A DNA stretch of 32,000 nucleotides, from contig NC_002939.5 of the NCBI RefSeq assembly GCF_000007985.2, forward strand, positions 240,001 to 272,000, in the 5' to 3' direction. The notes beneath the pieces are model-generated. The model was not told the origin of the DNA. It made no database searches and saw nothing but the letters and a program-made list of their open reading frames with translations. Below are positions 4,887-23,837 of the stretch, in pieces. The position numbers and the translations under genes were made by a program. Position 1 is the stretch's first letter. Every line of letters begins with the position of its first letter. Source of the stretch: Geobacter sulfurreducens PCA (GTDB lineage: Bacteria; Desulfobacterota; Desulfuromonadia; Geobacterales; Geobacteraceae).

Positions 4887-5303
4887 TCAGTGCCGGTCCA
4901 TGCGGCAGGTGCCGCCGTCGCAGCGGGATGCGCGTTTGGGAAGGTACCTGCGGATGCGGGCGAATCCCCGGTAGCCGAGCCGGGCCAGGAGGTTGAACCC
5001 CGGCAGCATCACGAGGGTGCCGAGGAGCCCGTAGAAGGTTGAGGCGGGGAAGGCCTGCCAGATGGCCCAGAAGCCTTCCACTCCCCGGTAGGCGCGGCCA
5101 TCCCGGTCGATGGCGTGCATCTGCGCCATGAACGCCTCCAGGGTGATGCCCCAGGGGGACGGGTCGAAGGCGGGATCGCTGATGTCCACGAAGACGAGCC
5201 GTCCCCCGTGGTTTTTGCGCCGGTAGACCGCCATTTCGGCCGCGCAGACGGAGCAGGCGCCGTCATAGAAGACGGTGAGGGGGAATGCCGGAGGGGTCGG
5301 CAC
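4887..5303 (-). CDS. Thiol-disulfide oxidoreductase, DCC family (DUF393)
   Basis: This is the C-terminal part of track ORF 4887..5663. The upstream 120 codons are Pro/Arg/Gly-rich read-through across the MaoC gene. The recognisable domain starts at GTG 5303..5301: (M)PTPPAFPLTVFYDGACSVCAAEMAVYRR..., containing the family D-G-x-C-x-x-C motif. Confidence 0.75.
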   Translation of the reverse strand: MPTPPAFPLTVFYDGACSVCAAEMAVYRRKNHGGRLVFVDISDPAFDPSPWGITLEAFMAQMHAIDRDGRAYRGVEGFWAIWQAFPASTFYGLLGTLVMLPGFNLLARLGYRGFARIRRYLPKRASRCDGGTCRMDRH

Positions 5304-5314
5304 GGTGCGCCGCC

Positions 5315-5791
5315 TCAGGGATAGACCCGCACCACCTGCTCGGCCACGCAGGCGGGCTTGTCCTTGCCCTCGATCTCCACGGTGATCTCGTAGGTGATCT
5401 GGACCGCCCCGGCCAGGGGCTCCACCGCCTTGAGCAGGGTGCGCGCCCGGAGCCGGGAGCCCACGATTACCGGCTGGGGAAAGCGGACCCGGTTCAGGCC
5501 GTAGTTGACCCGCAGCCGCATGCCGGGGTAGTTGCGCTGGAAGAAGTCCGGATGGTTCGCCTCCGTGAGGCAGGGGAGGAGGGAGAGGGTCAGAAAGCCG
5601 TGGGCCACGGTGGCGCCGTAGGGGGATTCGCGCCGGGCCCGCTCCGGGTCGGTGTGGATCCACTGGATGTCGCCGGTTACGTGAGCGAACCGGTCGATCC
5701 GCTCCTGGTCGACGGTGAGCCAGGGGCCCACGTGGGTTTCAGTGCCGAGTTTCGGGGCAAGGAATGCGATCAGGTCGTCCGCTGCCGACAT
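5315..5791 (-). CDS. MaoC-like (R)-specific enoyl-CoA/ACP hydratase/dehydratase (hotdog fold, NodN-like)
   Basis: Track ORF 5315..5818. I prefer the ATG at 5791 (MSAADDL...), which is preceded by GGAGG. FAHVTGDIQWIHTDPERARRESPYGATVAHGFLTLSLL is a typical MaoC dehydratase core. Confidence 0.8.
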   Translation of the reverse strand: MSAADDLIAFLAPKLGTETHVGPWLTVDQERIDRFAHVTGDIQWIHTDPERARRESPYGATVAHGFLTLSLLPCLTEANHPDFFQRNYPGMRLRVNYGLNRVRFPQPVIVGSRLRARTLLKAVEPLAGAVQITYEITVEIEGKDKPACVAEQVVRVYP

Positions 5792-5817
5792 AGAACCTCC
5801 GTGAAATCTGCCGTTCA

Positions 5818-5849
5818 CTGTAGGGGCAATTCGTGAAGTGCCCCTACAG
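5818..5849 (-). other. Perfect 11-bp stem / 10-nt loop hairpin between the radical-SAM A stop and the MaoC start
   Basis: CTGTAGGGGCA (5818..5828), a 10-nt loop, then TGCCCCTACAG (5839..5849). It sits 3 nt downstream of the TAG stop at 5855..5853 on the minus strand. No U-tract follows it. Confidence 0.5.
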
Positions 5850-5852
5850 CGG

Positions 5853-7238
5853 CTATTGAGGCTGGGAAAGCGGTTTCGCGTGGCTCCGTCCCAGCCGCTT
5901 GATCAGTTTCCACAGGGGACCGCGCACCGGGAAGTGGCGCATGGCCTCCAGCATGGCGTCGCTCATGTTGATCTCCAGTCCCGGCGCCACCCAGTTCCGC
6001 CGCGTCATGGCCCCGTCAGTGACGAGTTCCCCCAGCACGTCCCTGATGGCGGGGGCCAGGTAGAAGGTCGGTTCCAGGAGCGGTTCATCCGGCGTCACCA
6101 TCCCCTCGGCCACGGCCCGTTCGAAGAGGGGGGTGCCGGGGAAGATCCGGATGCCGGTCATGGCGATGACCGCGGTGGGGGCCACCTCGTCCATGAGGGC
6201 GAAGCTCTCGGCAATGGTCGCCGGGGTTTCGCCGGGGCCGCCGAAGAGGATGTAGTGGGCAAAGTCGACCCCCAGCTCGCGGCAGATGCGGGACGACTCC
6301 CGGATCTGTGCCACGCCGAAGGACTTGCCCAGGTTGCGGAGCATGGCTGGCGAGCCCGAGTCGGTGCCGAACTCCACGGCGTCGCAGCCGGCGGCCACCA
6401 TGGATTCCATGAGGCGCGGGGTGATGAACTGGGGGTTTATGAAGGCCGACCAGCCCATGGTGAGACCCGAGGCTATCATGGCCCGGCAGAGCTCCTCGGC
6501 AAAGTCGGGAGGGTAGTTGAAGATGTCGTCCACGAAGTAGACGTAGTCGATGCCGGCATCGGCCAGTTCCCGCAGTTCGGCCACGATCTCCGCCGTCGGC
6601 CGGAGCCGCATGCGCCGTCCCTCCAGGAGCGGATAGGTGCAGTAGATGCAGCCGAAGGGGCATCCCCGCTTCGTCTGGATGTTGGCCATCCCCCCCTCCC
6701 GCCGGTAGCGGGCCAGGGCGAAGAGGCGCCGGTCCGGGGCGGCGATCCGCTCCACCGGCCGGGGCGGCGCAAAGGCCCCGGCGCCGGCCACCACTCCCGG
6801 CAAACCCGCCGGGGACTCGCCCCGCTCAATGCAGGCCAGGAGCTCGGGCAGGATCTCCTCTCCCTCGCCCGCCACGCCGAGGTCACCGCCGGTGAAGGCG
6901 AGGAGTTCGGCGGGCATGAGGGAGAAGCCCGATCCCCCCAGGATGGTGGTGGCTATGCCCCGGCAGCGGTCCACGATGGCCTTGACCCCGGCCACGTAGG
7001 AGCGGGAGCCGGGCCAGGTGACGTTGTCGATGTTGCGGACGGAGATGATCACGGCCTGGGGGGTAAAATCCGCCAGAGCCGCGGTCACGGCCTCCTCCGG
7101 ATCGGCTTCGAAGCAGAGGTCCAGGGCCCGGAGCTCGTGGCCGGCCGCCTCCAGGGACGGGACCAGGCAGGCGAGCCCCAGGGGAAAGACCGGGTAGGGG
7201 CTCCGCTCCCGGTTTGCCGACACGAGGAGGAGCCTCAT
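5853..7238 (-). CDS. B12-binding-domain radical SAM enzyme (class B), here called rSAM-A
   Basis: 461 aa. The N-terminal Rossmann-like MRLLLVSANRERSPYPVFPLGLACLVPSLEAAGHELRALDL is typical of B12-binding rSAMs. The CxxxCxxC motif is KRGCPFGCIYCTY. Its ATG overlaps the upstream thioesterase stop (ATGA). Confidence 0.85.
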   Translation of the reverse strand: MRLLLVSANRERSPYPVFPLGLACLVPSLEAAGHELRALDLCFEADPEEAVTAALADFTPQAVIISVRNIDNVTWPGSRSYVAGVKAIVDRCRGIATTILGGSGFSLMPAELLAFTGGDLGVAGEGEEILPELLACIERGESPAGLPGVVAGAGAFAPPRPVERIAAPDRRLFALARYRREGGMANIQTKRGCPFGCIYCTYPLLEGRRMRLRPTAEIVAELRELADAGIDYVYFVDDIFNYPPDFAEELCRAMIASGLTMGWSAFINPQFITPRLMESMVAAGCDAVEFGTDSGSPAMLRNLGKSFGVAQIRESSRICRELGVDFAHYILFGGPGETPATIAESFALMDEVAPTAVIAMTGIRIFPGTPLFERAVAEGMVTPDEPLLEPTFYLAPAIRDVLGELVTDGAMTRRNWVAPGLEINMSDAMLEAMRHFPVRGPLWKLIKRLGRSHAKPLSQPQ

Positions 7239-7657
7239 GCCCCCTCCGTCCAGGCGAGCAGCCGTTCCAGCCGTTCGCCCACTGCGGGGGGAAGGCGGTA
7301 CTGGAGCACCCCGTCCCGGTCGGTGAGGGCGTGAACGGTGCGCCCCCGCGCGTAGAGGGTGCCGTCGGCTCCAAGGATGCGGGTGGCGAATTCGATGGTG
7401 GCCGTTTCGGTCCTGCGGGCCGTGGTCATGATCCGCAGTTCCTCGTTGAAACGGGCCGGTCGGCGATAGGAGAGCTCCAGGTCCACGACCGGCGCCAGGT
7501 ATCCCAGCTCGCCGATCTGGGCCGCGTCGAGCCCGAATCGCCCCGCCAGGTCGTTGCGCCCCACCTCCAGCCAGGCCACGTAGTGGCCGTGCCAGGCAAC
7601 GCCGTAGGAGTCAACCTCGTTGAAACGGACGGTGAGTGGTGTCTCGTGTTCCCGCAT
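7235..7657 (-). CDS. Acyl-CoA/acyl-ACP thioesterase, 4HBT/YbgC-like hotdog fold
   Basis: This is the C-terminal 140 codons of track ORF 7235..8395; the upstream part is out-of-frame read-through of the FabD-like gene. The ATG at 7657 gives MREHETPLTVRFNEVDSYGVAWHGHYVAWLEVGRNDL..., a typical 4HBT thioesterase N-terminus (R/V-x-x-x-D-x-x-G-x-x-x-H). GGGGGAGG lies just upstream. Confidence 0.8.
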   Translation of the reverse strand: MREHETPLTVRFNEVDSYGVAWHGHYVAWLEVGRNDLAGRFGLDAAQIGELGYLAPVVDLELSYRRPARFNEELRIMTTARRTETATIEFATRILGADGTLYARGRTVHALTDRDGVLQYRLPPAVGERLERLLAWTEGA

Positions 7658-7658
7658 G

Positions 7659-8501
7659 CTACCTCCCCCGCTCGCTTTCGATCCACCGGTTGTACTTGCG
7701 GAGGGAATCACCCGCCCCCACCTCGTAAAGACGGTCGACGCCGGCGGCGCGCAGGGCGCGGTAGGTGCGCTCCCACCGGACCGGCTCCATGAGGTCCCGG
7801 ACCATGAACACCGGCAGGTCTGCGGCGGCCAGGAAGTCCTGGTCGATGTGGTCCACCAGGGGGACGGACGGCTCCCGGTAGCGGTAATCGCCGGCAACGG
7901 CAGCAAGCTCTTCTGCCACCTCCGCCATGAGCGGGGTGTGGAGCGGGGCGTCGCACGGAAAGAGCCTGGCCGAGAAGGCGCCGCGGGCCAGGGCCTCGGC
8001 GCAGGCGTCCTCCATGGCCCCCCGTTCGCCGGCCAGGAGAAAGTGGCGGGACGTATTGTGATTGGCAAGGTACACGCCGTTGTTCTCGGCAATGACCAGG
8101 AGGGGTTCCAGGGTGAGCCCCACCATGCAGCCGAGGGCGTAGGTCCGTTGTCTCCCCATGGCGGCCATGGTCCTGCCGAGGCGGACGGCGAGCTCCAGGG
8201 CGTCCCCCTCATCCAGGGCGCCGGCCGCGGCCAGGGCGGGGTAGATCCCCATGCTGTGCTCGGCGATGAGCCGGGGCGCGATCCCCTCGGCCCTGAGCCG
8301 GCGGGTCCGGTAGAGCCCCATGGCCACGCCGTAGGCCTGGAGTGCCACGGTATCGCTGGACGGCTCGCCGGTCCAGGAAAAGGTGTGCAGGTCAAAGGAG
8401 GCCCGCTGCCGCGTCAAAAGGGCAATGGCCTCGAAATCCGCGTCCTCCGGGAATTCGACCGGGGGCGCGAGGGGTTGTCCGGGAAACATGAAGCAGATCA
8501 T
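7659..8501 (-). CDS. FabD-like acyltransferase ([acyl-carrier-protein] S-malonyltransferase family)
   Basis: Track ORF 7659..8609. I prefer the ATG at 8501 (MICFMFPGQ...), 2 nt after the upstream stop. The FPGQ N-terminus and the nucleophile elbow AEHSMG (GHSxG-type) support the family call, along with a later HTPLM-type motif (LHTPLMAEV). Confidence 0.8.
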   Translation of the reverse strand: MICFMFPGQPLAPPVEFPEDADFEAIALLTRQRASFDLHTFSWTGEPSSDTVALQAYGVAMGLYRTRRLRAEGIAPRLIAEHSMGIYPALAAAGALDEGDALELAVRLGRTMAAMGRQRTYALGCMVGLTLEPLLVIAENNGVYLANHNTSRHFLLAGERGAMEDACAEALARGAFSARLFPCDAPLHTPLMAEVAEELAAVAGDYRYREPSVPLVDHIDQDFLAAADLPVFMVRDLMEPVRWERTYRALRAAGVDRLYEVGAGDSLRKYNRWIESERGR

Positions 8502-8503
8502 GG

Positions 8504-9796
8504 TCAGGAGGCTTTCGTTTTGTCGGATTTTCGGATGGCGCTGCGGAACCCCAGGTTCATGGGGCCGAAGACCTGTACCGAGCGGTGCAGCTTGCCGATG
8601 CGCCGCCACATGGAGCCGAAGGAGTAGAAGGAGCGGTTGAGCCAGTCGTGCCCATCCTGGAGCTCCCGGGCGGTCATTCCCGTGGGGCGGAAGGTCACGT
8701 GCCCCATGTCGTAGTCGCGCCAGTCGTTGGAGGTGATCCGCCCCTCGGCCTCCAGCCGCCGGCGTACGGCGGTACCGGGGTAGGGGGTGAGGATCGGGAA
8801 GATGGCCGCCTCGATCCGGGCCTCTTCGCAGAAGCGGAGGATGCGTCCGAAGGAGTCCGGGGTGTCGCCGTCGTAGCCCAGGACAAAGGACCCGAGGATG
8901 CCGATGCCGTGGTCCCGGAATTTCCGGGCCTGGTCCAGGAACGCGGAGGAGCTGTTGGTCACCTTTCCCATGGCGGCCAGGGCCTCCTGGTCCAGGGACT
9001 CGAATCCCACGAACATGCCGATGCAGCCCGATTCGCCGGCGGCCCGCATCAACTCCTCATCACCGGCGAAATCGATGGGGGCATGGGAGAGCCACTTGAA
9101 TCCCATTCCCTTCATCCCCCGGAACAGGGGCAGGGCGTAGCGGCGGTCGGCCACCAGGTTGTCGTCCACGAAAAAGGCAAAGGAATTGGCCTTGCGCAGG
9201 GTTTCCAGCTCGGCCAGCACCGCTTCGACGGGGCGCTCCCGGTACTTGCGGCCGTAAAAAGCGGTGACCGAGCAGAATTCGCAGTCAAAGGGGCAACCCC
9301 GGGTGGTCTGGAGGGTGTTGGTCAGCAGATACCCCTTGCCGGCGAAGATCTCGCGCCGGGCCACCGGGATCGATGCCATGGGCAGGAGCCCCGGGGACCG
9401 GTAGAGGCGCTGGAGCCGGCCCGCCTGGAAATCCGCCAGCAGCAGGGGCCAGGAGAGTTCCCCTTCGCCCACCACCACGGCGTCCACGTGGCCGAGGGCC
9501 TCGTCCGGGAGATTGCTGGCGTGGAATCCCCCCATGACGACGGTTTTTCCCCGGGCGCGGAAGCCGGCGGCGATCTCGTAGGCCCGGGGCGCCTGGGGGG
9601 TCATGGCGGTGATGGCCACCAGATCGCACGGGGCATTGAAGTCGATGGTCTCCCGGCTCTCGTCGCAGAGGGCCGCGTCCCACTCGGGCGGAGTAACCGC
9701 AGCCAGGGCGGCCAGGGCAAGGGACGGGAACTTGAAGCCCAGTTCGCCCCAGAGCCTGCCCCGGGGCCAGCCCGGCGCCACGAAGAGAATCTTCAT
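8504..9796 (-). CDS. B12-binding-domain radical SAM enzyme (class B) with a DUF4070-like tail, here called rSAM-B; paralog of rSAM-D
   Basis: 430 aa. B12-binding-like block: DLVAITAMTPQAPRAYEIAAGFRARGKTVVMGGFH...DAVVVGEGE. The CxxxCxxC motif is TRGCPFDCEFCSV. ILTPYPGTA is also present. Its ATG overlaps the ACP stop (ATGA). Confidence 0.85.
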   Translation of the reverse strand: MKILFVAPGWPRGRLWGELGFKFPSLALAALAAVTPPEWDAALCDESRETIDFNAPCDLVAITAMTPQAPRAYEIAAGFRARGKTVVMGGFHASNLPDEALGHVDAVVVGEGELSWPLLLADFQAGRLQRLYRSPGLLPMASIPVARREIFAGKGYLLTNTLQTTRGCPFDCEFCSVTAFYGRKYRERPVEAVLAELETLRKANSFAFFVDDNLVADRRYALPLFRGMKGMGFKWLSHAPIDFAGDEELMRAAGESGCIGMFVGFESLDQEALAAMGKVTNSSSAFLDQARKFRDHGIGILGSFVLGYDGDTPDSFGRILRFCEEARIEAAIFPILTPYPGTAVRRRLEAEGRITSNDWRDYDMGHVTFRPTGMTARELQDGHDWLNRSFYSFGSMWRRIGKLHRSVQVFGPMNLGFRSAIRKSDKTKAS

Positions 9797-10050
9797 TTCC
9801 GGTTGGCGGCGATATGGTCGGCCATGCTTCGGACCGACGCGAAGACCTTGGTGCCGGTGGCGGCGTCGGGGACCACCACGCCGAAATCCTTCTCCATGGC
9901 CACCACGAGTTGGAGGGCGTCGATGGAATCGAGGCCGAGCCCTTCGCCGAAGAGGGGGGCGTCGGTGTCGATGTCGTCGGGGGACATTCCCTCGATCCGG
10001 AGGGCGTCGATGATCATCTGCTTTACCTGCACAATAAGTTGGTCGGACAT
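9793..10050 (-). CDS. Acyl carrier protein (dedicated, cluster-associated)
   Basis: 85 aa and acidic. LGLDSIDALQLVVAMEKDFG carries the D-S phosphopantetheine attachment motif at the start of helix II. Confidence 0.85.
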   Translation of the reverse strand: MSDQLIVQVKQMIIDALRIEGMSPDDIDTDAPLFGEGLGLDSIDALQLVVAMEKDFGVVVPDAATGTKVFASVRSMADHIAANRK

Positions 10051-10054
10051 GCGG

Positions 10055-10954
10055 TTATCCCTTCACGGTTTCGTTGTGTTCATTGTTCCAGAAGTCGAAA
10101 AAGTTGTACCACTGGTCAGGGTAGCAGCGGATGTACCGCTCGAAGACCCCGAGTACCTGCTCCATCCCCCGGCGGATGGCCTCGGCGTTGCGGCCCCGCC
10201 CGCCGACGAACCGGATCGGCTCCTCCATGATGGTCGCGTAGCGGCTCCCCTCCAGGGGGACGAACACCGGCATGACCGGCGCACCCGTGGCCAGGGCCAG
10301 GTAGGCGGCCCCCACCGGGATGGGGGTCGGCCGGCCGAAGAACTCCAGCTCCATGGTCTGGGACGAGCCGTCGCGATCAACCAGGAGCGCCACCACCTCG
10401 TTGCGGCGCAGGGCGTTCACCGCCTCCACGGCAGCCAGGGGAGAGGTGTCGTGCCGGTCCACGTAGATGAAGCGGATGCCCCGCTCCTCCCGGACCCGCT
10501 CCCGCAGGTCGTTCACCCGCTCGTCGGGCTCCCGGAAGGTCATGACGTTGAGCCGGTAGCCCCGCTCGGCCAGCCCCAGCCCCCCCAGTTCCCAGTTGCC
10601 CAGGTGGGGCGAAACGATGATGGCACCGTTCCCCTCCGCCAGGACCCGATCCAGGATACCGTGCCCCTCCTGCCGGCCGATGAGGGCAAAGAGCCGCTCG
10701 CCCCGGCGGCGCATCATGAGCATGATGTCGGTCCAGTTGCGGGAGCACTTGTAGTAGGTGGAGAGCACCAGCCGCTCCACGTTGCGCCTGCCGGTCACGG
10801 CCCTCAGGTTCGCACGCACCCCTCGCCGGGGCCCGGGAATGGCCAGGTAGAGAATCAGCCCCGTCAGAAAGGCGAAGGGCGCATGGACCGTCCGGGGGAC
10901 CAGCAGGGTGAACAGGTTGATAAGGAACAGGTTTATCCGGTTGTGCAGCGGCAC
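10055..10954 (-). CDS. LpxL/HtrB-family (lipid A biosynthesis lauroyl/myristoyl-type, LPLAT superfamily) acyltransferase
   Basis: 299 aa with an N-terminal hydrophobic anchor. The catalytic H-x4-(D/E) motif is SPHLGNWE. VDRDG and a PVGAAYLA-type block are typical of Lip_A_acyltrans proteins. The start is a GTG and is uncertain by a few codons. Confidence 0.8.
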   Translation of the reverse strand: MPLHNRINLFLINLFTLLVPRTVHAPFAFLTGLILYLAIPGPRRGVRANLRAVTGRRNVERLVLSTYYKCSRNWTDIMLMMRRRGERLFALIGRQEGHGILDRVLAEGNGAIIVSPHLGNWELGGLGLAERGYRLNVMTFREPDERVNDLRERVREERGIRFIYVDRHDTSPLAAVEAVNALRRNEVVALLVDRDGSSQTMELEFFGRPTPIPVGAAYLALATGAPVMPVFVPLEGSRYATIMEEPIRFVGGRGRNAEAIRRGMEQVLGVFERYIRCYPDQWYNFFDFWNNEHNETVKG

Positions 10955-11045
10955 GTGTCAGCTCGTCATGCCGGAGTTCCGGCGTCGGTGAAGTTTCTCC
11001 CGAATCCGTGGCTCTTCGGCTCCAGGGATTCAGGTTTCAGATACA

Positions 11046-12422
11046 TCAGCGGGTTACGCCCTTGGGCCGTTTCCCCTGCCCGGCGCCGAACTCCTGCTCC
11101 CAGGCCGGGTCGGCGAACTCGGCGTACCGCCGGGCATAGTCGTCCATGTTGTCCGCCAGAGCGGTGAAGATGGCGTCGGCCCCCTCGTGGGTGGGATAGG
11201 CCCCGGCGCTTTGGAAGAGCTCGCGCCCCACGTCAGGGTGGTCGATGAGCATGCAGGGGCGGAGCAGGTTGTCGTGCTCGCCCTGCACTTGGCGGATTTT
11301 CCGGAACAGCGGCGACCGCAGGGCCTCCCGCAGGGTGGTGCGCCGGATGTTGTCCACGGCGAAGTGGCAGAAAACGCACGGCTCGATGTCGCCGTTGGCG
11401 TTGATGTGGAAGTACTTGCGCCCCCCCGCGATGCAGCCGCTGATGATGGGTCCGTCGTTCCAGAAGTCCACGAAGAGCATCGGCTTGGCGGCCCGGAAAT
11501 CGACGATCCGGCGCCGCAGGGCGTCCCGCTGCTCCGGTGTCGCCATCAGTTCCAGATCGGGCTCCCGTCCCACCGGCACGTAGGTGAAGAGCCAGAGGGC
11601 GAAGACCCCCTTCGCCACCAGCATGTCGATGTACTCGTCGCTGGTGATGATGTCGGTATTCCGGCTGGTCTGGGTGAAGGAGCCGCAGAACGAGAGCCCC
11701 GCCTCCCGCAGCAGGTCCATGGCCCGCATGACCTTGCGGAAATGGCCGGGGCCGCGCCGTTCGTCGGTTTCCTGCTCGTACCCCTCCAGGGAGAAGGCGG
11801 GCATCACGTTCCCCACCTCCACCAGTTTCCGTACCATGGCCTCGTCGATGAGCCCGCCGTGGGTGAAGACGAGGAAGGCCATGTCCGAGTGCTTTTTGAA
11901 GATCTCGAAGATGTCTTCTTTAAAGAACGGCTCACCGCCGGAAATGACGGCGAAGTAAACCCCCATCTCCTTCATCTGGGTGAGGATCGAATCGATCTCG
12001 TCGTTGGTCAGCTCCAGGGCCTTGGCGTAATCGCCCGCGTAGCAGCCGTAACAGGAGAGGTTGCACTTCATGGTGGTGCTGATGACCACGGTGGAGGGGG
12101 GATAGTACCCCTCCCGCTCCTGCCACGCCTTCCGCTTGTTGGTGCCTGAGAGGAGGTGGTTCACCGCCAGGTTCGTGATCCACTTCTCCCGCTGGTTGGG
12201 GTGGATCTCCCGCAGGATACGGCGGGGAAACTCGATGGAAGGATGGTTCTCCCGGATGAGCCTCCGGATCCAGCGGATCCGTTCCTTGTAGTATTCCTTC
12301 TTCGGGATCAGCTCCATCAGGTGCGTCATCCGCGCCAGGTTCTCGTTGGAGGCGTTGGTGGCCATGGAGAGAAGGAGGGAGACGATCTTTTCGGTTGTAT
12401 AGTTTTTCAGGCTCTGGAGCAT
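11046..12422 (-). CDS. Radical SAM enzyme with a ~115-aa N-terminal helical extension and a C-terminal partial-SPASM/twitch cysteine motif, here called rSAM-E
   Basis: Track ORF 11046..12425 (TTG). I prefer the ATG at 12422. The CxxxCxxC motif is TTMKCNLSCYGCYA, followed by a GGEPF SAM-binding motif. The C-terminal GCIAGGRKYFHINANGDIEPCVFC fits C-x13-G-x4-C followed by x2-C, and a further Cys occurs in RPCML. Confidence 0.85.
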   Translation of the reverse strand: MLQSLKNYTTEKIVSLLLSMATNASNENLARMTHLMELIPKKEYYKERIRWIRRLIRENHPSIEFPRRILREIHPNQREKWITNLAVNHLLSGTNKRKAWQEREGYYPPSTVVISTTMKCNLSCYGCYAGDYAKALELTNDEIDSILTQMKEMGVYFAVISGGEPFFKEDIFEIFKKHSDMAFLVFTHGGLIDEAMVRKLVEVGNVMPAFSLEGYEQETDERRGPGHFRKVMRAMDLLREAGLSFCGSFTQTSRNTDIITSDEYIDMLVAKGVFALWLFTYVPVGREPDLELMATPEQRDALRRRIVDFRAAKPMLFVDFWNDGPIISGCIAGGRKYFHINANGDIEPCVFCHFAVDNIRRTTLREALRSPLFRKIRQVQGEHDNLLRPCMLIDHPDVGRELFQSAGAYPTHEGADAIFTALADNMDDYARRYAEFADPAWEQEFGAGQGKRPKGVTR

Positions 12423-12471
12423 CAATCTGTGACCTCGTTGTGATTCCCGGCAAAAGGGCCCCTGCGCAGCC

Positions 12472-13134
12472 TCACATGTGGCGCAGGAACGTCATGCAGA
12501 TATTCCAGGTATCCCGCACCGGCCGGAAATGGCTCGTGGCACGTCCGTCCGCCACCCGGGCGGCCACGGGGAGCGAATCGATGGCGAATCCACCCCGCCA
12601 TGCCTTCATGAGGATTTCCATCTCCAGGTGGTAGCCGCTCGCCTCCAGGGAGACCCCTTTCAGGAGCCGGGCGGAGTACCAGCGGAACCCGGACTGGCTG
12701 TCGGTGATGGTGAAGCCGGTCCGCTTCCTCATGCACCAGACGCCGAAGCGGTTCCAGACGGAGCGAAGCCCCGCCATCTCCCGGAACTGGGTATCGCGGG
12801 AGGCGATGAGGATGTCGACGTTGCGCTCCCGGGCCGTAGCCGCCAGGAGCGGGATGGCCGTGGGGTCGTGCTGGCCGTCGGCGTCCAGGGTCACCACGCC
12901 GGAGTATCCGTGCGCGAGCGCCCACTCGAAGCCGGTCCGCAGGGCCGCTCCCTTGCCGCGGTTGCCGTCGTGGCGCAGCAGGTGTACCCCCAGCCCCTCC
13001 ACCGTGGCGGAGGTCCCGTCGGTGGAGCCGTCGTCCACCACGAGGCATGGCATCCCCAGGCCGAGGACTTCCCGGACCACGGCCGGCAGGGTCCGGGCCG
13101 CGTTGTAGGCTGGTATGATTATACAGTATCCCAA
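12472..13134 (-). CDS. Family 2 glycosyltransferase (short, soluble, DPM1/ArnC-like catalytic domain)
   Basis: 220 aa. IIIPAYNAARTL, VVDDGSTDGT, NRGKGAALRTGF and TLDADGQHDP (DxD) are canonical GT2 blocks. I saw no C-terminal TM segments. The start is TTG at 13134 and overlaps the deacetylase stop by 16 nt. Confidence 0.8.
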   Translation of the reverse strand: MGYCIIIPAYNAARTLPAVVREVLGLGMPCLVVDDGSTDGTSATVEGLGVHLLRHDGNRGKGAALRTGFEWALAHGYSGVVTLDADGQHDPTAIPLLAATARERNVDILIASRDTQFREMAGLRSVWNRFGVWCMRKRTGFTITDSQSGFRWYSARLLKGVSLEASGYHLEMEILMKAWRGGFAIDSLPVAARVADGRATSHFRPVRDTWNICMTFLRHM

Positions 13135-13949
13135 CGGTCAACCAACTGATCGAGTGTAGTGAATGAGAATCGTTCCAGCAGGGCGTCGAGTCGCGGTGCC
13201 GCATCGCTACGCGGTCCGTAGGCCACGAAGGAGCGCAGGGGCGGCAGCGCCAGCCGCGGGCCCTCCGGGTCAACCTCCCGGGGATGAACGTACAGCACCG
13301 CCGGCATGCCGCGCCGGTTCAATCCCGCTACGCTGGCCCCGATCAGCCCCAGCGGAAAGAACCGGAAGCCCCACCCGCCGCCCGTCGGCAGGTTTCCCAA
13401 GGGGGTCCGCGTCACCAGGGGCGGCACCTCCACCAGGGGCCCCGCCGGGGTGTCGATCCTGAACGGACCGCGCGGACCGCGCCGGTCTCCCACGAAGGGG
13501 AGCGGCGAGAGACTGGAATCGTACCGGTATCCCTCATCCCGCAGGATGGGAAAGGCCCAGGGGGTCCGCCGGCGGCAGAGGGACCACTGGGGTGCCCGGA
13601 ATCCCACGGGGCGCCGGCCGGTCTGCCGTTCCAGGAGGTCACCGGTTCGCCGCAGCTCCGTCCGGAATTCTTCGGGAGAGAGCCCGGTCACGAGCCGGTG
13701 GGACCAGCCGTGCGAAGCAATCTCATGGCCCGCTTCGGCGATTGACGGCGCCAGGCCCGGATGCCGTTGGGCCACGGAGCCGAGCAGAAAGAAGGTGGCC
13801 CGGCAGCCGCGCCTGGCCAGCAGCGCCAGCAGCCGTCCGACGGCGGGAACGACCCGCTCCGTGTCAGGACTGACGACCGGCTCGCCGGGGAGTCCGCAGA
13901 CATGGTACCAGTCCTCCACGTCGATGGTCAGGGCATTCAGAACGGGCAT
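13119..13949 (-). CDS. Polysaccharide deacetylase (NodB homology, DUF3473-type C-terminus)
   Basis: Track ORF 13119..14033. I prefer the ATG at 13949 (MPVLNALTIDVEDWYH...), because the track TTG start coincides with a -35-like TTGACT (see the promoter feature). TIDVEDW (Asp-containing motif 1) and HEIASHGWSH (His motif 2) match the NodB fold. Confidence 0.8.
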   Translation of the reverse strand: MPVLNALTIDVEDWYHVCGLPGEPVVSPDTERVVPAVGRLLALLARRGCRATFFLLGSVAQRHPGLAPSIAEAGHEIASHGWSHRLVTGLSPEEFRTELRRTGDLLERQTGRRPVGFRAPQWSLCRRRTPWAFPILRDEGYRYDSSLSPLPFVGDRRGPRGPFRIDTPAGPLVEVPPLVTRTPLGNLPTGGGWGFRFFPLGLIGASVAGLNRRGMPAVLYVHPREVDPEGPRLALPPLRSFVAYGPRSDAAPRLDALLERFSFTTLDQLVDRWDTV

Positions 13950-14003
13950 CACCGAGAAAAAAAAGGGGATGGCATCTCCCCCTCTGCTTTCAAGAATAGC
14001 GAA

Positions 14004-14033
14004 AGTATAATACTCCCGCCTAACTTTAGTCAA
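14004..14033 (-). promoter_or_regulatory. Sigma70-like promoter candidate for the minus-strand (deacetylase to MaoC) operon
   Basis: On the minus strand: TTGACT (14033..14028), an 18-nt spacer, then TATACT (14009..14004). It lies in the only AT-rich stretch of the divergent intergenic region. A GGGGA/TCCCC hairpin followed by T8 lies in the predicted leader (13981..13957). Confidence 0.4.
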
Positions 14034-14130
14034 TACGCAGGGAATCAGCTTTAACGAAACATATTACCCTTGACCCCCGCCGCCCTTTTCGGAAACAATA
14101 CCCCCGTTACTTCACCTTGGCGAGATTCAG

Positions 14131-15594
14131 ATGAACATTCTCCTGCTCCGCCCCCATCCCGGCAACGACCGGTTCGGCCTCGGCCCCTTCTTTCGGGTCG
14201 AGCCCCTGGGGCTCGAATACATCGGCGCGGCGCTTCGCGCCCACGGCCACACCGTTACCGCGGCAGATCTTCGCTTCCGCCCCGGTGCCGCAACCTGGGT
14301 CAGGCGCACCCGGCCCCGTCTCGTGGGAATATCCTGCCTCCACGCCCTGGAGTACGAGCGGGTGGTTGAAACGGCCCGTGAGGTCAGGCGGGCAAGCCCC
14401 GATGCCTTCATCTTCGTGGGGGGGCATGCGGCCGCCGCCTTTCCCGCTCCTCTGGAGTGCGACGCGGTGGACGCCATCTGCCGCGACGACGGGGAGGAAA
14501 TCGTGCCCCTGGTTGCCGCCGCCCTGGCGAAGGGTGGGCGGCTTGACGAGGTACCGGGGCTCCGGCTGCGCGAACCCGACGGCTGGCGCGACACCCCCTG
14601 CCTCGACCGCCAGACCTGCCTCGACCTCGTGCCGCTCCCGGCCCGGGACCTGGTGGACCGGCACCGCTCCGGCTACCACTGCCTTCTCTTTAAGCCGGTC
14701 TGGCTCGTGGAGACGGCCCGGGGCTGCCCCCACCGCTGCTCCTTCTGCTCCGTCTGGCAGCTCTACGGCCGTTCCTGCCGCGAGCGGAGCATTGCCGCGG
14801 TGGTGGAGGATTTCGCCACGGCCGGGGATTCGATCTTCGTGGCCGACGACCTCTTCTGGCACAATCCGGCCCGGAGCCTGGAGCTGGCCGAGGCGCTGAA
14901 AAAGCGCGGGGTTTTCAAACGCTGGATTCTCGTCCAGACCCGCACCGACCTCATCTGCCGGAGCGCCGACCTCATGGCCGCCTGGCGTCCCCTGGCCAAG
15001 GATTTCGACATCTTTCTGGGGCTGGAGGCGGCCACGGACAAGGGGCTCGCCGGGATCACCAAGGATTCCGGCGTGGCCGAGAGCGTGGAGGCGGTCCGCC
15101 TTGCCCGCGAACTGCGCTACGGCATCAACGGCAATTTCCTCATCGATCCTGATTGGGGTGAGGACGATTTCCGCGACCTCTGGGACTTTGTGGCCCGCTA
15201 CGGCCTCCAGCGGGCCGGGTTCACGATCCTCACGCCCCTGTCCGGCACCGATTTCTTCCGGGAAGTGGCCCCGCGCATTGCCCGCCAGCCCTGGTCCAAC
15301 TTCGACATGCACCACCTCCTGTGGGACCCCCGGGTGGGCGCCCCGCGTTTCTTCGAGCTCTATGCCGAGACCTGGCGCCGCTCCATCCTCAATACCTCGG
15401 GAGACAAGAGCCTGGTGGACTGGATGAAGCAGGTCCGCCCCTCCCAGATTCCCTACATCGCCCGGGTCCTCTGGCGGACCCAGCGGATGATGAAGCCCGA
15501 GGCCTATCTCAGGGAGTACGAGGCGACCCGGCCCCGGACAACGGAGCCCCTGGTGGATTTCAGCGCCGGGGCGTACTGCGGGGGAGCCGCCTGA
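14131..15594 (+). CDS. B12-binding-domain radical SAM enzyme (class B), here called rSAM-C
   Basis: 487 aa. The N-terminal MNILLLRPHPGNDRFGLGPFFRVEPLGLEYIGAALRAHGHTV is B12-binding-like. The CxxxCxxC motif is ARGCPHRCSFCSV. This is the first gene of the plus-strand operon. Confidence 0.85.
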   Translation: MNILLLRPHPGNDRFGLGPFFRVEPLGLEYIGAALRAHGHTVTAADLRFRPGAATWVRRTRPRLVGISCLHALEYERVVETAREVRRASPDAFIFVGGHAAAAFPAPLECDAVDAICRDDGEEIVPLVAAALAKGGRLDEVPGLRLREPDGWRDTPCLDRQTCLDLVPLPARDLVDRHRSGYHCLLFKPVWLVETARGCPHRCSFCSVWQLYGRSCRERSIAAVVEDFATAGDSIFVADDLFWHNPARSLELAEALKKRGVFKRWILVQTRTDLICRSADLMAAWRPLAKDFDIFLGLEAATDKGLAGITKDSGVAESVEAVRLARELRYGINGNFLIDPDWGEDDFRDLWDFVARYGLQRAGFTILTPLSGTDFFREVAPRIARQPWSNFDMHHLLWDPRVGAPRFFELYAETWRRSILNTSGDKSLVDWMKQVRPSQIPYIARVLWRTQRMMKPEAYLREYEATRPRTTEPLVDFSAGAYCGGAA

Positions 15595-16880
15595 TGTCCC
15601 GTTCCCCTCGGCTGCTGCTGATCTACCCGGCGACCCACAAGCTCGGTTGGGCGCGCTATTTTCAGCTTCCCTCCCATTCGCTCCAGATGGTGGCCGCGGC
15701 CACGCCCCGCCACTGGGAGGTGATCCTGGCCGACGAGGTCCATGACGAGGTCCCCTTTGACGGAACCTTCGACCTGGTGGGGATCACGGCCATGACCCAC
15801 CAGGCGACGCGGGCCTATGAGATCGCCGACCGGTTCCGGGCCCGGGGTGTCCCCGTGGTGATGGGGGGAATCCACCCCACGGTCCTGCCCGACGAGGCAC
15901 TGGAGCACGCCGACGCGGTGGTGGTGGGGGAGGCCGAGCCGGTCTGGGCGCACCTTCTCGACGACCTCCTGGCCGGGCGGCTCGCACCGGTCTACCGGGC
16001 GCCGGTCCCCACGGACGAAATCCTCTCCGCCCCCTGGCCCCGCCGCGAGATCCTGGCTGGCCGCCGCTACCTCACCACCCAGACGGTCCAGGCGAGCCGG
16101 GGCTGCCCCTACGACTGCTCCTTCTGCACCGTCACTCCCTACTTCGGCCGCACCTTCCGCTACCGCGACCCCGACGACATCCTGGCAGAGATTCGCTCCT
16201 TCAGACGCAAGCTCGTGGTCTTTCTCGACGACAACCTCCTGGGCGATCCGGCCAAGGCCCGGCCCATCCTGCGGGGGCTGGCCGAGATGAACGTCCGCTG
16301 GGGCTCCCAGACCAATCTCCGTTTTGCCGAGGACCCGGAGCTCCTGAAACTCGTGGCGGACTCGGGGTGCATCGGCCTCTTCGTGGGGATCGAGTCGGTG
16401 ACCGGGGCCCACGCCAACATGGCCAAGTCCGGCACCCGTTACTCCCAGGCCGATCTCATGAAGCGGGTCCGCGACGCCGGCATCATCCTGGAAACCTCCA
16501 TCATCTTCGGTTTCGACGACCACGACGAGAGCGTCTTCGAGACCACGGTCCGCTTCCTGGAGGAGTGCTCCCCCAGCGTCCCCACCTTCCACATCCTCAC
16601 CCCCTACCCCGGCACGGCCCTGTTCCGCCAGTTCCAGGAGGAGGGGCGGCTCCTGACCACCGACTGGTCCCGTTACGATCACTCTACCGTGGTCTTCCGG
16701 CCCCGTCTCATGTCTCCCGAACGGCTTCACCGGGGCTGGCTGGAGGCACGCCGTGAGGCCTACTCCTGGCGGGCCATCGCCACCCGCGTCATGCGCAATC
16801 CGGGGCGCCGCCTGACGAATTTCGCCTACAACATGCTGCGCAAGGGACCAAACGACCTGCTGGAGGATGGGGCGCCGTAG
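15594..16880 (+). CDS. B12-binding-domain radical SAM enzyme (class B) with a DUF4070-like tail, here called rSAM-D; paralog of rSAM-B
   Basis: Track ORF 15321..16880; its first 91 codons are read-through of rSAM-C in another frame. The ATG at 15594 overlaps the rSAM-C stop (TGATG) and gives MSRSPRLLLIYPATHK... Supporting blocks: DLVGITAMTHQATRAYEIADRFRARGVPVVMGGIH, SRGCPYDCSFCTV and ILTPYPGTA. Confidence 0.85.
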   Translation: MSRSPRLLLIYPATHKLGWARYFQLPSHSLQMVAAATPRHWEVILADEVHDEVPFDGTFDLVGITAMTHQATRAYEIADRFRARGVPVVMGGIHPTVLPDEALEHADAVVVGEAEPVWAHLLDDLLAGRLAPVYRAPVPTDEILSAPWPRREILAGRRYLTTQTVQASRGCPYDCSFCTVTPYFGRTFRYRDPDDILAEIRSFRRKLVVFLDDNLLGDPAKARPILRGLAEMNVRWGSQTNLRFAEDPELLKLVADSGCIGLFVGIESVTGAHANMAKSGTRYSQADLMKRVRDAGIILETSIIFGFDDHDESVFETTVRFLEECSPSVPTFHILTPYPGTALFRQFQEEGRLLTTDWSRYDHSTVVFRPRLMSPERLHRGWLEARREAYSWRAIATRVMRNPGRRLTNFAYNMLRKGPNDLLEDGAP

Positions 16881-16940
16881 GGCACCGTTCTCCTCTCGAT
16901 CCGATGCGTACCCTGCCGGCATGAGGATGGAACGTCTGCC

Positions 16941-17918
16941 ATGACCCGTTTGATTGTCTTCGGAATACTTGCGGCATTCTTCTTCAGCAGCACGTTCGTG
17001 CTCAACCGGGCCATGAGCCTGGAGGGAGGGCACTGGGCATGGACCGCGAGCCTGCGCTACGGATACATGCTGCTTCTGCTCTGCACCTGGTTGCTGCTGA
17101 AAGGACGACGGGGGGTACTGATTGCTGCATGGGACGCCTTTCGCCGGAATTGGCTGTTCTGGACCACGGCGGGAAGTGTCGGCTGCGGGGCGTTTTACGC
17201 CCTGATCTCCTTCAGCGCGTCGTTCGCTCCCGGCTGGGTGGTGGCAACCACCTGGCAGATTACCATCCTCGCGACACCGGTGGTGCTCCTGCTGTTCGGC
17301 CGCCGGGTGCCGGCCAGGGGGGTGTTGTTCACTGCCATGATTTTTCTCGGCATTGTGCTGGTTACCCTTGAGCAGGCAACCGCCGCTCCGCTGGGCGACA
17401 TCCTGCGGGGGGTAGTGCCGGTTGTGGCCGCGGCATTCGCCTATCCCCTGGGCAACCAGATGGTGTGGGAGGCCCGCCATGGGACATCTTCTCTGCTGCC
17501 GGCCATAACGGACCCCGTCGTCGACGACAGCTTCGGGAGGGTACTGCTCATGGTGCTCGGCTCGATCCCCTTCTGGGTCGTGCTGCTCATCGTGGCAGCG
17601 CCCCCGCCCCCCTCGCCCGGTCAGTTGGTCAACACGGCCCTGGTGGCGGTGTTTTCCGGCGTCATTGCCACGAGCCTGTTTCTTCATGCCCGGCATTGCG
17701 CGTCAACTACCTACGAACTTGCCGCCATTGATGCGACCCAATCGACCGAGGTTATTTTTTCGCTTCTAGGGGAGATCGTCTTTCTCCATGGCGCACTGCC
17801 GGGCTCGTCGGGCACCGCGGGGCTGGTGCTGGTCGTCGGCGGGCTCATGCTGTATGTCCGGGCCCAGACCGCGGGTCCGCTTAAAGAAATGGTTCACAGC
17901 CGGGCAGAGAAAGGGTAA
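16941..17918 (+). CDS. DMT-superfamily membrane transporter (putative multidrug-resistance efflux transporter family)
   Basis: 325 aa with about 10 predicted hydrophobic helices. The N-terminus FGILAAFFFSSTFVLNRAMSLEGGHWAWTASLRY resembles the family annotated as multidrug resistance efflux transporter family protein. It is co-directional with rSAM-C/D, 60 nt downstream. Confidence 0.65.
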   Translation: MTRLIVFGILAAFFFSSTFVLNRAMSLEGGHWAWTASLRYGYMLLLLCTWLLLKGRRGVLIAAWDAFRRNWLFWTTAGSVGCGAFYALISFSASFAPGWVVATTWQITILATPVVLLLFGRRVPARGVLFTAMIFLGIVLVTLEQATAAPLGDILRGVVPVVAAAFAYPLGNQMVWEARHGTSSLLPAITDPVVDDSFGRVLLMVLGSIPFWVVLLIVAAPPPPSPGQLVNTALVAVFSGVIATSLFLHARHCASTTYELAAIDATQSTEVIFSLLGEIVFLHGALPGSSGTAGLVLVVGGLMLYVRAQTAGPLKEMVHSRAEKG

Positions 17919-17930
17919 TAATGATCACGG

Positions 17931-18404
17931 ATGGAATTCATCCCCGGGGGAGATGCCGGCATAATGCAGCCAGAGCCCGTCGTTTCGAACATTGCCCATG
18001 TCATCCAGATGTCTGTCGCGCCGGTTTTTCTCCTCACCGGTGTCGGCGCGATTCTGTCCGTGCTCATCAATCGGCTGGGCCGCATCGTTGACCGTGCCCG
18101 CGTCATCGAACAGCACCTTGCCGATGTCGCCAGTGATGGCAGGGCCTTGGCCAGGCTTGAGCTGACAACGCTCGGTCGCCGCATGCGGTTGATCAACTGG
18201 GCCATCAGTTCGTGCACGATAAGCGCGCTCCTCGTGTGCGTGGTCATAGCCCTGCTTTTTGTGGGTGCGTTCCTCCACGTCAATGTGTCGGACGTTGCCG
18301 CCCTGCTGTTCGTGTTTGCCATGCTCGCACTGATCGGAGGCTTGCTGGGCTTTCTCCGGGAGATCTACCTGGCGATCGCCACTGCACGCCTGGGGATGCG
18401 CTGA
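17931..18404 (+). CDS. DUF2721 family membrane protein
   Basis: 157 aa. IQMSVAPVFLLTGVGAILSVLINRLGRIVDRARVIE matches the DUF2721 signature as I remember it, and two further TM helices follow. An alternative start at 17964 (MQPEP...) is possible. Confidence 0.65.
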   Translation: MEFIPGGDAGIMQPEPVVSNIAHVIQMSVAPVFLLTGVGAILSVLINRLGRIVDRARVIEQHLADVASDGRALARLELTTLGRRMRLINWAISSCTISALLVCVVIALLFVGAFLHVNVSDVAALLFVFAMLALIGGLLGFLREIYLAIATARLGMR

Positions 18405-23635: not shown

Positions 23636-23837
23636 TCTTTTCACTGTTTGAGTCAAACATTCCTGACAGACTGACGACGTTATTTCGGATATTTACTGTC
23701 GTTGGGCGCCTATCCTTTTGTTCATACCGCGGGAAACCCTGCAGTACCTGTCCCAACCGTGCCCATGTCCTTTGACATGTATACGCCGCTTCCGGCCCCG
23801 GAGCGGAATGATCCGGCAAAACACAGGAGGAAGGAGC

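Follow-up and report, generated by a model that had tools for sequence, protein, structure and literature searches.

A split gene cluster of Geobacter sulfurreducens related to aryl polyene and ladderane-type clusters, and its proposed role in outer-membrane glycolipid synthesis

What do five radical S-adenosylmethionine (radical-SAM) enzymes do together in a gene cluster that also encodes an acyl carrier protein (ACP), an acyltransferase, a glycosyltransferase and a deacetylase? The question is raised by a cluster of Geobacter sulfurreducens PCA found at positions 5315 to 18404 of a 32,000-nucleotide stretch of contig NC_002939.5 (positions 240,001 to 272,000, forward strand); the whole stretch is called here the window. 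An initial annotation, made from the DNA letters alone, had read the cluster as a candidate pathway for an unusual envelope lipid, in which a chain held on the ACP is tailored by several radical steps, attached to an amino-sugar lipid and exported. The analysis reported here indicates that the window probably holds only part of a pathway encoded at two loci, the half for tailoring and lipid assembly, and that the product is probably a specialised outer-membrane glycolipid. The cluster itself is an uncharacterised, widely conserved system, related by sequence both to aryl polyene (APE) clusters and to the 'ladderane-type' clusters of anammox bacteria.

Homology to the aryl polyene machinery and the division between two loci

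The link to a system of known product came from a comparison with the APE cluster of Escherichia coli CFT073 (c1186-c1204). The APE lipid consists of a polyene esterified to O-6 of N-acetylgalactosamine (GalNAc), which is phosphate-linked to diacylglycerol. From deletion mutants, ApeJ has been proposed to add the sugar and then to acylate it from the carrier protein ApeE, and ApeL/N/M (LolA-like, LolB-like and MMPL proteins) have been proposed to bring the APE lipid to the outer membrane. An acceptor lipid has been reported to build up in the mutant lacking apeJ. Counterparts of several of these proteins are encoded on the minus strand of the window. The dedicated ACP (9793-10050; Pfam PP-binding), which carries the DSI serine motif, is 46% identical to ApeE and passes the NCBIfam model NF006617 with 75.1 bits against a cut-off of 70; E. 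coli ApeE reaches 89.5 bits on the same model. The hot-dog (4HBT) thioesterase (7235-7660; Pfam 4HBT_2) is 43% identical to ApeK and has the same NCBIfam match pattern. Both domains of ApeJ are represented as well, each by a gene of its own: in BLASTP searches, the family 2 glycosyltransferase (GT2; 12472-13134; Pfam Glycos_transf_2) aligned with the N-terminal domain of ApeJ (residues 8-229, 32% identity, E 7e-24) and the membrane-associated acyltransferase (10055-10954; Pfam Lip_A_acyltrans, 97 bits) aligned with the C-terminal domain (residues 363-550, 26%, E 8e-17). The acyltransferase and ApeJ have the motifs HLGxxE (HLGNWE versus HLGDVE) and W(Y/F)NFFDFW in common, and the first of them, H117-LGNW-E122 in the window protein, is the HX4D/E catalytic motif of the wider superfamily. 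The top NCBIfam match of the GT2, below its cut-off, is the polyprenyl-phosphate-GalNAc synthase PpgS, which is likewise the top match of ApeJ.

These homologies changed the reading of the acyltransferase, which had been described as LpxL-type and connected with lipid A. It scored 24.4 bits against a cut-off of 297.8 on TIGR02207 and 24.9 against 336.05 on TIGR02208, every LpxL, LpxM and LpxP model failed, and the assignment to the LpxL-type lipid A acyltransferases was rejected in favour of an ApeJ-C-like enzyme. Its top NCBIfam model, the PatA-type phosphatidylinositol mannoside acyltransferase, also remained below the cut-off (108.9 bits against 209). Two further conserved proteins belong to broad families without reaching a curated model. 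The FabD/MdcH-like acyl-CoA:ACP transacylase (7659-8501, minus strand; Pfam Acyl_transf_1), with the active-site motif EHSMG, scored 118 bits on MdcH and 98 bits on FabD, both sub-cut-off, and the NodB-fold deacetylase (13119-13949, minus strand; Pfam Polysacc_deac_1 and DUF3473), with the motif HGWSH, scored 205.4 bits on TIGR03006 (XrtA-system polysaccharide deacetylase), for which the cut-off is 276.2.

By definition, the APE core set comprises a ketosynthase (KS), a chain length factor (CLF), a ketoreductase (KR), a dehydratase (DH), an ACP and an MMPL transporter. Only the ACP is encoded in the window, and no KR, KS, CLF, DH, Lol-like or MMPL gene was found anywhere in its 32 kb. The rest of the set is adjacent in relatives and was found at a second locus in G. 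sulfurreducens, so that the set is complete at the genome level. Related loci were gathered with a 10-sequence alignment, and gene content was compared over 80 genome loci. The counts that follow cover the 28 loci in which the radical-SAM enzyme A (rSAM-A; the five enzymes are called A to E) is at least 58% identical, and they are lower bounds, as many contigs end inside the cluster. The genes usually follow one another as deacetylase, GT2, rSAM-E, acyltransferase, ACP, rSAM-B, transacylase, thioesterase, rSAM-A, KR, KS, the ketosynthase-like CLF, a hot-dog DH, LolA-like, LolB-like and MMPL. Geobacter sp. AOG1, Geomobilimonas, Oryzomonas, G. hydrogenophilus and many metagenome-assembled genomes (MAGs) show this full order, and a Trichlorobacter contig stops after rSAM-A. 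The transacylase and the thioesterase were present at all 28 loci, the ACP, the acyltransferase and rSAM-E at 25, rSAM-B at 24, the deacetylase and the GT2 at 23, and KR, KS and CLF at 19, 18 and 17, respectively. The same parts are found in rearranged order in Syntrophaceae, Desulfobacterales, Thermodesulfobacteriota, Nitrospirota and NC10, and rSAM-A adjoins KR or KS/CLF in most related loci, distant phyla included. The co-localisation of these genes is thus conserved beyond close strains, across genera of the Geobacteraceae and, in shuffled form, well outside the family. In an unsplit relative (locus L003), KR, KS and DH are 42%, 36% and 31% identical to ApeQ, ApeO and ApeP, respectively. 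In Geobacter sp. AOG1, a 1,163-amino-acid gene of the alpha-amylase family lies between the LolA-like and LolB-like genes (L001, 15740-19231).

The second half of the pathway was located through its CLF. In the window and in the 95.6%-identical locus L005, genes for MaoC, DCC and Tex proteins come after rSAM-A in place of the ketoreductase. When the CLF of the unsplit relative was used as a query, a 72%-identical protein was recovered from G. sulfurreducens genomes, and the series KR-KS-CLF-DH-LolA-LolB-MMPL could be read, intact, in G. sulfurreducens AP028967.1 (L098, 7924-15296). This second locus is collinear with the unsplit relative from KR onward and has the same right flank, made up of a DPBB_1 gene, a menaquinone-synthesis gene, a nucleoside phosphorylase and a histidine kinase. 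The PCA copies, with at least 90% identity, are AAR33792 (KS) and AAR33791 (CLF), which follow rSAM-A at a distance of 219 protein accessions. Rattray et al. listed a degenerate FabF paralogue for G. sulfurreducens, and this is probably AAR33791. The collinearity from KR onward, together with the presence of MaoC, DCC and Tex at the window end, places the breakpoint exactly between rSAM-A and KR, and the window half is the part that moved. Since the KR-to-MMPL half lies about 219 genes away, the window represents half of a split cluster, and the biological unit is twice as large as the 5315-18404 interval and spread over two loci. The pathway is therefore not self-contained, as had been assumed, given that the chain-building KS, CLF, KR and DH are encoded elsewhere.

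Comparison with L005, which shares the split, gave dN/dS ratios of 0.04-0.27 for all eleven core genes, with no premature stops. For the radical-SAM enzymes, the ratios were 0.21 (rSAM-A), 0.09 (rSAM-B), 0.07 (rSAM-C), 0.16 (rSAM-D) and 0.04 (rSAM-E, the lowest). The window half is under purifying selection and is not decaying. In one G. anodireducens genome, the ApeJ-like acyltransferase is in two fragments of 153 and 146 amino acids and the cluster KS is a 272-amino-acid fragment (P0409, P0415, P0584), which reflects either a pathway decaying in this strain or frameshifts introduced by sequencing.

The radical-SAM enzymes

Each of the five radical-SAM enzymes has a single, intact CxxxCxxC motif, and four of them (A to D) combine the Pfam Radical_SAM domain with a B12-binding domain, as had been noted initially. 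The core enzyme of the family is rSAM-A (5853-7238, minus strand; B12-binding 49.9 bits, Radical_SAM 78.4 bits), with the cluster motif C193-x3-C197-x2-C200. It passes the NCBIfam model TIGR04072 with 379.8 bits against a cut-off of 360, its residues 2-445 covering positions 1-440 of the 443 in the model. This model has the short name rSAM_ladder_B12 and the product name 'lipid biosynthesis B12-binding/radical SAM protein'; the name is the only indication that the enzyme of the anammox ladderane cluster is a member. Relatives of rSAM-A are numerous, about 2,470 close ones and 1,187 more distant (E < 1e-30). In a sequence match against the structure database, the closest solved structure was the cobalamin-dependent tryptophan C2-methyltransferase TsrM (6wte; E 2.5e-39).

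The other three cobalamin-type enzymes scored 66-71 bits on TIGR04072 and are not members. rSAM-B (8504-9796, minus strand) and rSAM-D (15594-16880, plus strand; with an additional DUF4070 domain) are paralogues, 45% identical to each other. rSAM-B is divided into two open reading frames (ORFs) of 155 and 243 amino acids in an NCBI MAG (L004, 7440-8738) and is a single 432-amino-acid ORF in the matching ENA contig, that of L003, so the break is probably an assembly error. rSAM-C (14131-15594, plus strand) aligned over its full length with the model of the hopanoid methylase HpnR (E 3.5e-68) and scored 230.3 bits on it, against a cut-off of 650; it is a distant relative of HpnR. The number of B12-type radical-SAM genes varies from two to four per species. 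rSAM-C was present at 5 of the 28 loci, always within the cluster, and rSAM-D at 11, in three different positions within the cluster. The rSAM-D/rSAM-C pair is found in one of three places (L016, L028, L054, L045, L003 and the window): upstream and divergent, between the genes for rSAM-B and the transacylase, or beyond MMPL. This distribution fits a role of rSAM-C and rSAM-D as accessory enzymes whose tailoring makes the product differ from one species to another.

rSAM-E (11046-12425, minus strand; Pfam Radical_SAM and SPASM) is of another type. It has a 100-residue N-terminal extension and a SPASM domain that scores 34.7 bits against a gathering score of 21.5, with only four C-terminal cysteines (331, 350, 353 and 391) instead of the seven-cysteine SPASM motif that accommodates two auxiliary clusters. 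The earlier description of a partial SPASM domain is in keeping with this count, and the enzyme is twitch-like, with at most one auxiliary cluster, because of the four cysteines. Among solved structures, SkfB and the sugar decarboxylase BlsE come closest to it, and weak matches to sactipeptide and heme-d1 maturases lie far under the cut-offs. In distant and rearranged clusters, such as those of Desulfobacterales, rSAM-E remains beside the deacetylase.

More familiar identities for the cobalamin-type enzymes were also considered. On the BchE model (cut-off 481), rSAM-A to rSAM-D scored 54.6-109.9 bits, and on the HpnJ model (cut-off 577.6) the B12-type enzymes scored 51-87 bits; none of them reached the cut-off of any family of cofactor enzymes or of enzymes for ribosomally synthesised and post-translationally modified peptides (RiPPs). 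Identification as BchE or as RiPP or cofactor maturases was therefore rejected on these sub-cut-off scores, as was identification as hopanoid methylases, neither the HpnR nor the HpnJ cut-off being reached. The initial annotation had seen no ordinary explanation for these enzymes nearby, and this view was borne out both by the scores and by the window, which contains no hopanoid, porphyrin or precursor-peptide genes; the one curated family reached, TIGR04072, is a lipid family.

Proposed pathway and competing explanations

The gene content, the homologies, the conservation, the split and the purifying selection are shown by the data, whereas every chemical step, and the product, is inferred. 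The FabD-like transacylase would load the dedicated ApeE-type ACP, and enzymes from the second locus (the KS/CLF pair, KR and DH) would extend the chain. The unsplit cluster has no gene for an enoyl reductase, and for this reason the chain would probably be unsaturated or hydroxylated, unless a housekeeping enzyme steps in. The cobalamin-type radical-SAM enzymes would modify the chain at its carbons while it is bound to the ACP, with A and B as core enzymes and C and D as optional ones; rSAM-A and rSAM-B would probably act on ACP-bound intermediates. Because the nearest characterised relatives of rSAM-A and rSAM-C are cobalamin-dependent methyltransferases (TsrM and HpnR), C-methylation is the first guess and the most likely modification of the chain; methyl-derived ring formation or a rearrangement of the chain is possible. 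For the head group, the GT2 would put an N-acetyl-hexosamine on a phosphoglycerolipid, as proposed for the N-terminal domain of ApeJ, and the NodB-type enzyme would remove the acetyl group, freeing the sugar amine and perhaps redirecting acylation to the nitrogen. In Nod-factor and lipid A chemistry, an amino sugar is deacetylated and then acylated on nitrogen from acyl-ACP in the same manner. rSAM-E may further alter the head group, a role suggested by its association with the deacetylase, by the sugar decarboxylase among its near relatives and by its being the most constrained gene. The ApeJ-C-like acyltransferase would then transfer the completed chain from its carrier protein to the sugar, the ApeK-like thioesterase would edit or release intermediates, and the LolA-like, LolB-like and MMPL proteins of the second locus would carry the lipid to the outer membrane.

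In its broad lines, this scheme retains the chemistry of the initial annotation, since the transfer of an ACP-tethered chain to an amino-sugar lipid is supported by the ApeE, ApeK and ApeJ homologies and by the GalNAc-phosphate-glycerol product of the APE pathway; the lipid A link, the exporter and the extent of the unit had to be corrected. The APE clusters of E. coli CFT073 and Xenorhabdus doucetiae (apeB-R) are alike in the ApeE-type ACP, the ApeK-like thioesterase and both ApeJ domains and, at the second locus and in unsplit relatives, in KS, CLF, KR, DH, the LolA-like, LolB-like and MMPL proteins and the lack of an enoyl reductase. A common logic is likely, in which a chain built on a private ACP is transferred to a hexosamine-phospholipid destined for the outer membrane. 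The Geobacter system differs from them in that the ApeH ligase, the ApeB methyltransferase, ApeD and the second ACP are missing, ApeJ corresponds to two genes, a NodB-type deacetylase and three to five radical-SAM enzymes are added and, in G. sulfurreducens, the cluster lies at two loci. No AMP-binding or methyltransferase gene was found in the window cluster, L003 or L098, and because the aryl-starter genes (ApeH, ApeB) are absent the cluster was not filed as APE.

Several points weigh against the proposed glycolipid pathway. The identities to Ape proteins are modest (26-46%), and with ApeD, ApeH and ApeB absent from the Geobacter clusters and a deacetylase present, the acceptor lipid could differ. 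No characterised member of TIGR04072 was found, and rSAM-B, C, D and E are each below every curated family cut-off. The terminator scans of the window gave no terminator-like sites that would mark the operon ends. No paper naming GSU0236-GSU0249 was returned from the library searched, and these genes have no known product or phenotype; searches for TIGR04072 and for Geobacter together with the antiSMASH ladderane class found nothing.

Among the other explanations, the remodelling of lipid A or lipopolysaccharide is unlikely. According to it, an LpxL-type acyltransferase would add a modified secondary chain, and the GT2 and the deacetylase would decorate the molecule through a polyprenyl-phosphate amino sugar, as ArnC and ArnD do. 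The acyltransferase does belong to Pfam Lip_A_acyltrans, the top curated matches of the GT2 are polyprenyl-phosphate sugar synthases (PpgS, AglJ and ArnC, all sub-cut-off), and the pairing of a GT2 with a NodB-fold enzyme follows ArnC/ArnD logic. However, LpxL, LpxM and LpxP models gave 22-25 bits against about 300, the acyltransferase aligns instead with the C-terminal domain of ApeJ and has the C-terminal WxNFFDFW in common with it, and the cluster accompanies KS/CLF and Lol-like/MMPL genes, not lpx or arn. A combination of GT2, NodB-fold deacetylase, acyltransferase, private ACP and KS is also found in Nod-factor and lipid A synthesis (NodC/NodB/NodA with NodF/NodE; LpxC/LpxD). The window acyltransferase is neither NodA nor LpxD, the NodB and LpxL models were not reached, and the acceptor is probably a phosphoglycerolipid-linked sugar. 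Action of the radical-SAM enzymes on hopanoids, with rSAM-C as an HpnR-like methylase and the GT2, deacetylase and radical-SAM enzyme working like HpnI, HpnK and HpnJ on an aminosugar or cyclitol side chain, is very unlikely. Geobacter makes hopanoids, and hopanoid tailoring by HpnR, HpnP and the HpnI-HpnK-HpnJ route likewise employs cobalamin radical-SAM enzymes on lipids. In the published route, HpnI is the glycosyltransferase, HpnK the deacetylase and HpnJ the radical-SAM enzyme for ring contraction, and this triad on an amino-sugar head group resembles that of the window; rSAM-C also aligns over its full length with HpnR. Against it, the scores are far under the cut-offs (230 against 650 bits for HpnR, 52-87 against 578 for HpnJ), no hopanoid genes are present in the window or in the unsplit clusters, and the genes are tied to an ACP, transacylase and KS/CLF system. 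Further, rSAM-E is of the twitch/SPASM type whereas HpnJ is a B12-type enzyme, and HpnK is YdjC-type, not NodB-type. A head-group role of rSAM-E could still echo, by analogy, the HpnI/HpnK/HpnJ triad and calditol synthase.

The name of the family to which rSAM-A belongs also suggests a true ladderane pathway, that is, one leading to cyclobutane-containing fatty acids as in anammox bacteria. Clusters similar to the anammox one were reported in Geobacter, Pelobacter and Desulfotalea (Rattray et al., 2009), and ladderane-type clusters (the antiSMASH 'ladderane' class) in non-anammox phyla, Desulfobacterota among them, have been described as of unknown function. Anammox Cluster I (KustE3603-3608), which has been proposed for ladderane synthesis, resembles the Geobacter system in having a cobalamin radical-SAM enzyme, a private ACP, a dehydratase and an active/inactive KS pair, and the G. 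sulfurreducens genome has a KS with an inactive KS-like partner; in Cluster I the active and inactive ketosynthases form a heterodimer and none of the genes has yet been tied to a product. In contrast to Cluster I, no phytoene-dehydrogenase-like gene was found in the window, L003 or L098, and the Geobacter system possesses extra genes for sugar attachment and Lol/MMPL export. Ladderanes have been reported only from anammox Planctomycetota, none being found in Desulfotalea, which has similar clusters, and they are not known from Geobacter; the link to a product is unproven in both systems. For the lack of a phytoene-dehydrogenase-like gene and of ladderanes outside anammox bacteria, the cluster was not filed as ladderane, and a true ladderane product is very improbable. 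Unlikely, too, is a more far-reaching reading in which carbocycles or other carbon-carbon bonds are introduced into the growing, ACP-bound polyene by the TIGR04072-type enzyme together with its paralogues. The chemistry would then be common to this system and to anammox ladderane synthesis, and the product would be a cyclised or poly-methylated glycolipid of the outer membrane that has not been seen before. That the window half might be a nonfunctional, decaying remnant stranded by a rearrangement is suggested by its separation from the KS/CLF and export genes, by an insertion sequence (IS) element just past the cluster (19066-20184) and by the fragmented acyltransferase and KS copies in the G. 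anodireducens genome. It is highly improbable and was rejected, given that no ORF or motif is disrupted, that dN/dS lies between 0.04 and 0.27 and no premature stop has arisen since the split, that the second half is likewise intact and that the promoter region is conserved. Finally, there is very little likelihood that the product is a soluble secondary metabolite, peptide or cofactor instead of an envelope lipid. Radical-SAM/SPASM and B12-type radical-SAM enzymes are frequent in RiPP and cofactor pathways, and rSAM-E does match sactipeptide and heme-d1 maturases weakly, but all such matches are far under the cut-offs, the spacing is too tight for a precursor-like gene between the enzymes, and the enzymes are conserved together with an ACP, a transacylase, an acyltransferase, Lol-like proteins and an MMPL protein.

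What cobalamin radical-SAM enzymes do in fatty-acid clusters of the ladderane type has been a standing question since 2009, as anammox bacteria have no genetics and the anammox enzyme has not been expressed heterologously. The gene combination is not as novel as had been thought, having been known in the literature, and as a curated family, since about 2009; the statement that no product has been assigned to it stands. G. sulfurreducens is routinely grown and genetically tractable, with gene-deletion methods available. In strain PCA, a TIGR04072 member is found in a complete but split pathway under selection, which opens the question to deletion and lipidomics, and the link to APE yields a prediction that can be checked, namely an acylated hexosamine-phospholipid as the outer-membrane product. 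The varying number of B12-type radical-SAM enzymes between species points to a family of related lipids, and a new outer-membrane lipid in Geobacter could bear on the biology of electron transfer at the cell surface. If the carbocycle or carbon-carbon bond chemistry were true, G. sulfurreducens would become a model for solving the ladderane-type pathway.

Gene layout, promoter region and neighbouring genes

Fifteen ORFs lie between 4887 and 18404, eleven on the minus strand and four on the plus strand, and in the Pfam scan each of the named domains exceeded its gathering score, so that every gene and domain listed initially is present. Neighbouring genes overlap by 1-16 nt or are separated by gaps of less than 92 nt, a spacing typical of operons. 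The two sets of genes diverge from a 181-bp spacer (13950-14130) with a G+C content of 47.5%, as compared with 66-67% in the flanking genes and 64% in the whole window. Two divergent sigma-70-like matches were found in it (14033-14004 on the minus strand and 14070-14099 on the plus strand; 0.1 expected), both of them kept in L005 (96% identity) and in L003 (about 75-90%), in agreement with the earlier picture of two operons around an AT-rich region. A scan of the whole window against Rfam gave no match, cobalamin riboswitches included. A G+C-rich hairpin with a tract of eight U after it (13953-13985, minus strand), located between the start codon of the deacetylase and the predicted promoter of the minus strand, is kept in L005 and L003 with base changes that retain the pairing. 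Its folding energy is like that of shuffled sequences (z -1.35), and it is not claimed as a regulatory element; it could be a leader attenuator, or nothing.

Several genes at the edges of the cluster, taken at first as its members, turned out not to be conserved with it. The MaoC-like hydratase/dehydratase (5315-5818, minus strand) and the DCC1-like thiol-disulfide oxidoreductase (4887-5291, minus strand) were absent from all 80 genome loci, as was the DMT (EmrE/EamA-type) transporter (16941-17918, plus strand; PF13536, 315.7 bits), and the DUF2721 membrane protein (17931-18404, plus strand) was present at one. MaoC stands beside rSAM-A only in the G. sulfurreducens group, KR following rSAM-A elsewhere; no terminator-like site separates the two genes, and co-transcription with rSAM-A is possible. 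MaoC is a lineage-specific neighbour at the breakpoint. DCC is absent from all related loci other than those of the G. sulfurreducens type (L005 shares the MaoC-DCC-Tex series). The whole DMT gene (given in this comparison as window positions 16881-17878) is missing from L005 by a clean insertion or deletion, only about 170 bp being left between rSAM-D and DUF2721. This gene is a strain-variable neighbour, and the suggestion that it encodes the exporter of the pathway was rejected; the conserved export genes are the LolA/LolB-like and MMPL genes, outside the window. DUF2721 adjoins the cluster in L005 and in G. hydrogenophilus (L045), and was absent from the other loci; its association with the cluster is weak.

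Elsewhere in the window lie genes for Tex, sensor kinases, a response regulator, a hemerythrin, a cation/proton antiporter, a major facilitator superfamily transporter and the IS element. The latter, just past the cluster, is an IS-type transposase gene (DUF4372 and DDE_Tnp_1) located in a dip of 51% G+C, and to regard it as the cause of the split is speculation. Downstream of it (20495-25688) lie genes for two large sensor histidine kinases with PAS/GAF domains and for a LuxR-type response regulator, which nothing ties to the control of the cluster. The PCA protein accessions are AAR33572.1 for rSAM-A, AAR33577 for the acyltransferase, AAR33581 for rSAM-C and AAR33569 for Tex. Counting from the published GSU0230 (pilus ATPase), four genes beyond Tex, the window genes correspond roughly to GSU0235-GSU0249 and rSAM-A to GSU0237, by inferred numbering. 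G. sulfurreducens KN400 (CP002031.1) has the exact rSAM-A protein with the same neighbours, as do many G. sulfurreducens sequencing runs, and KN400 has slightly divergent copies of two of the four proteins with these accessions.

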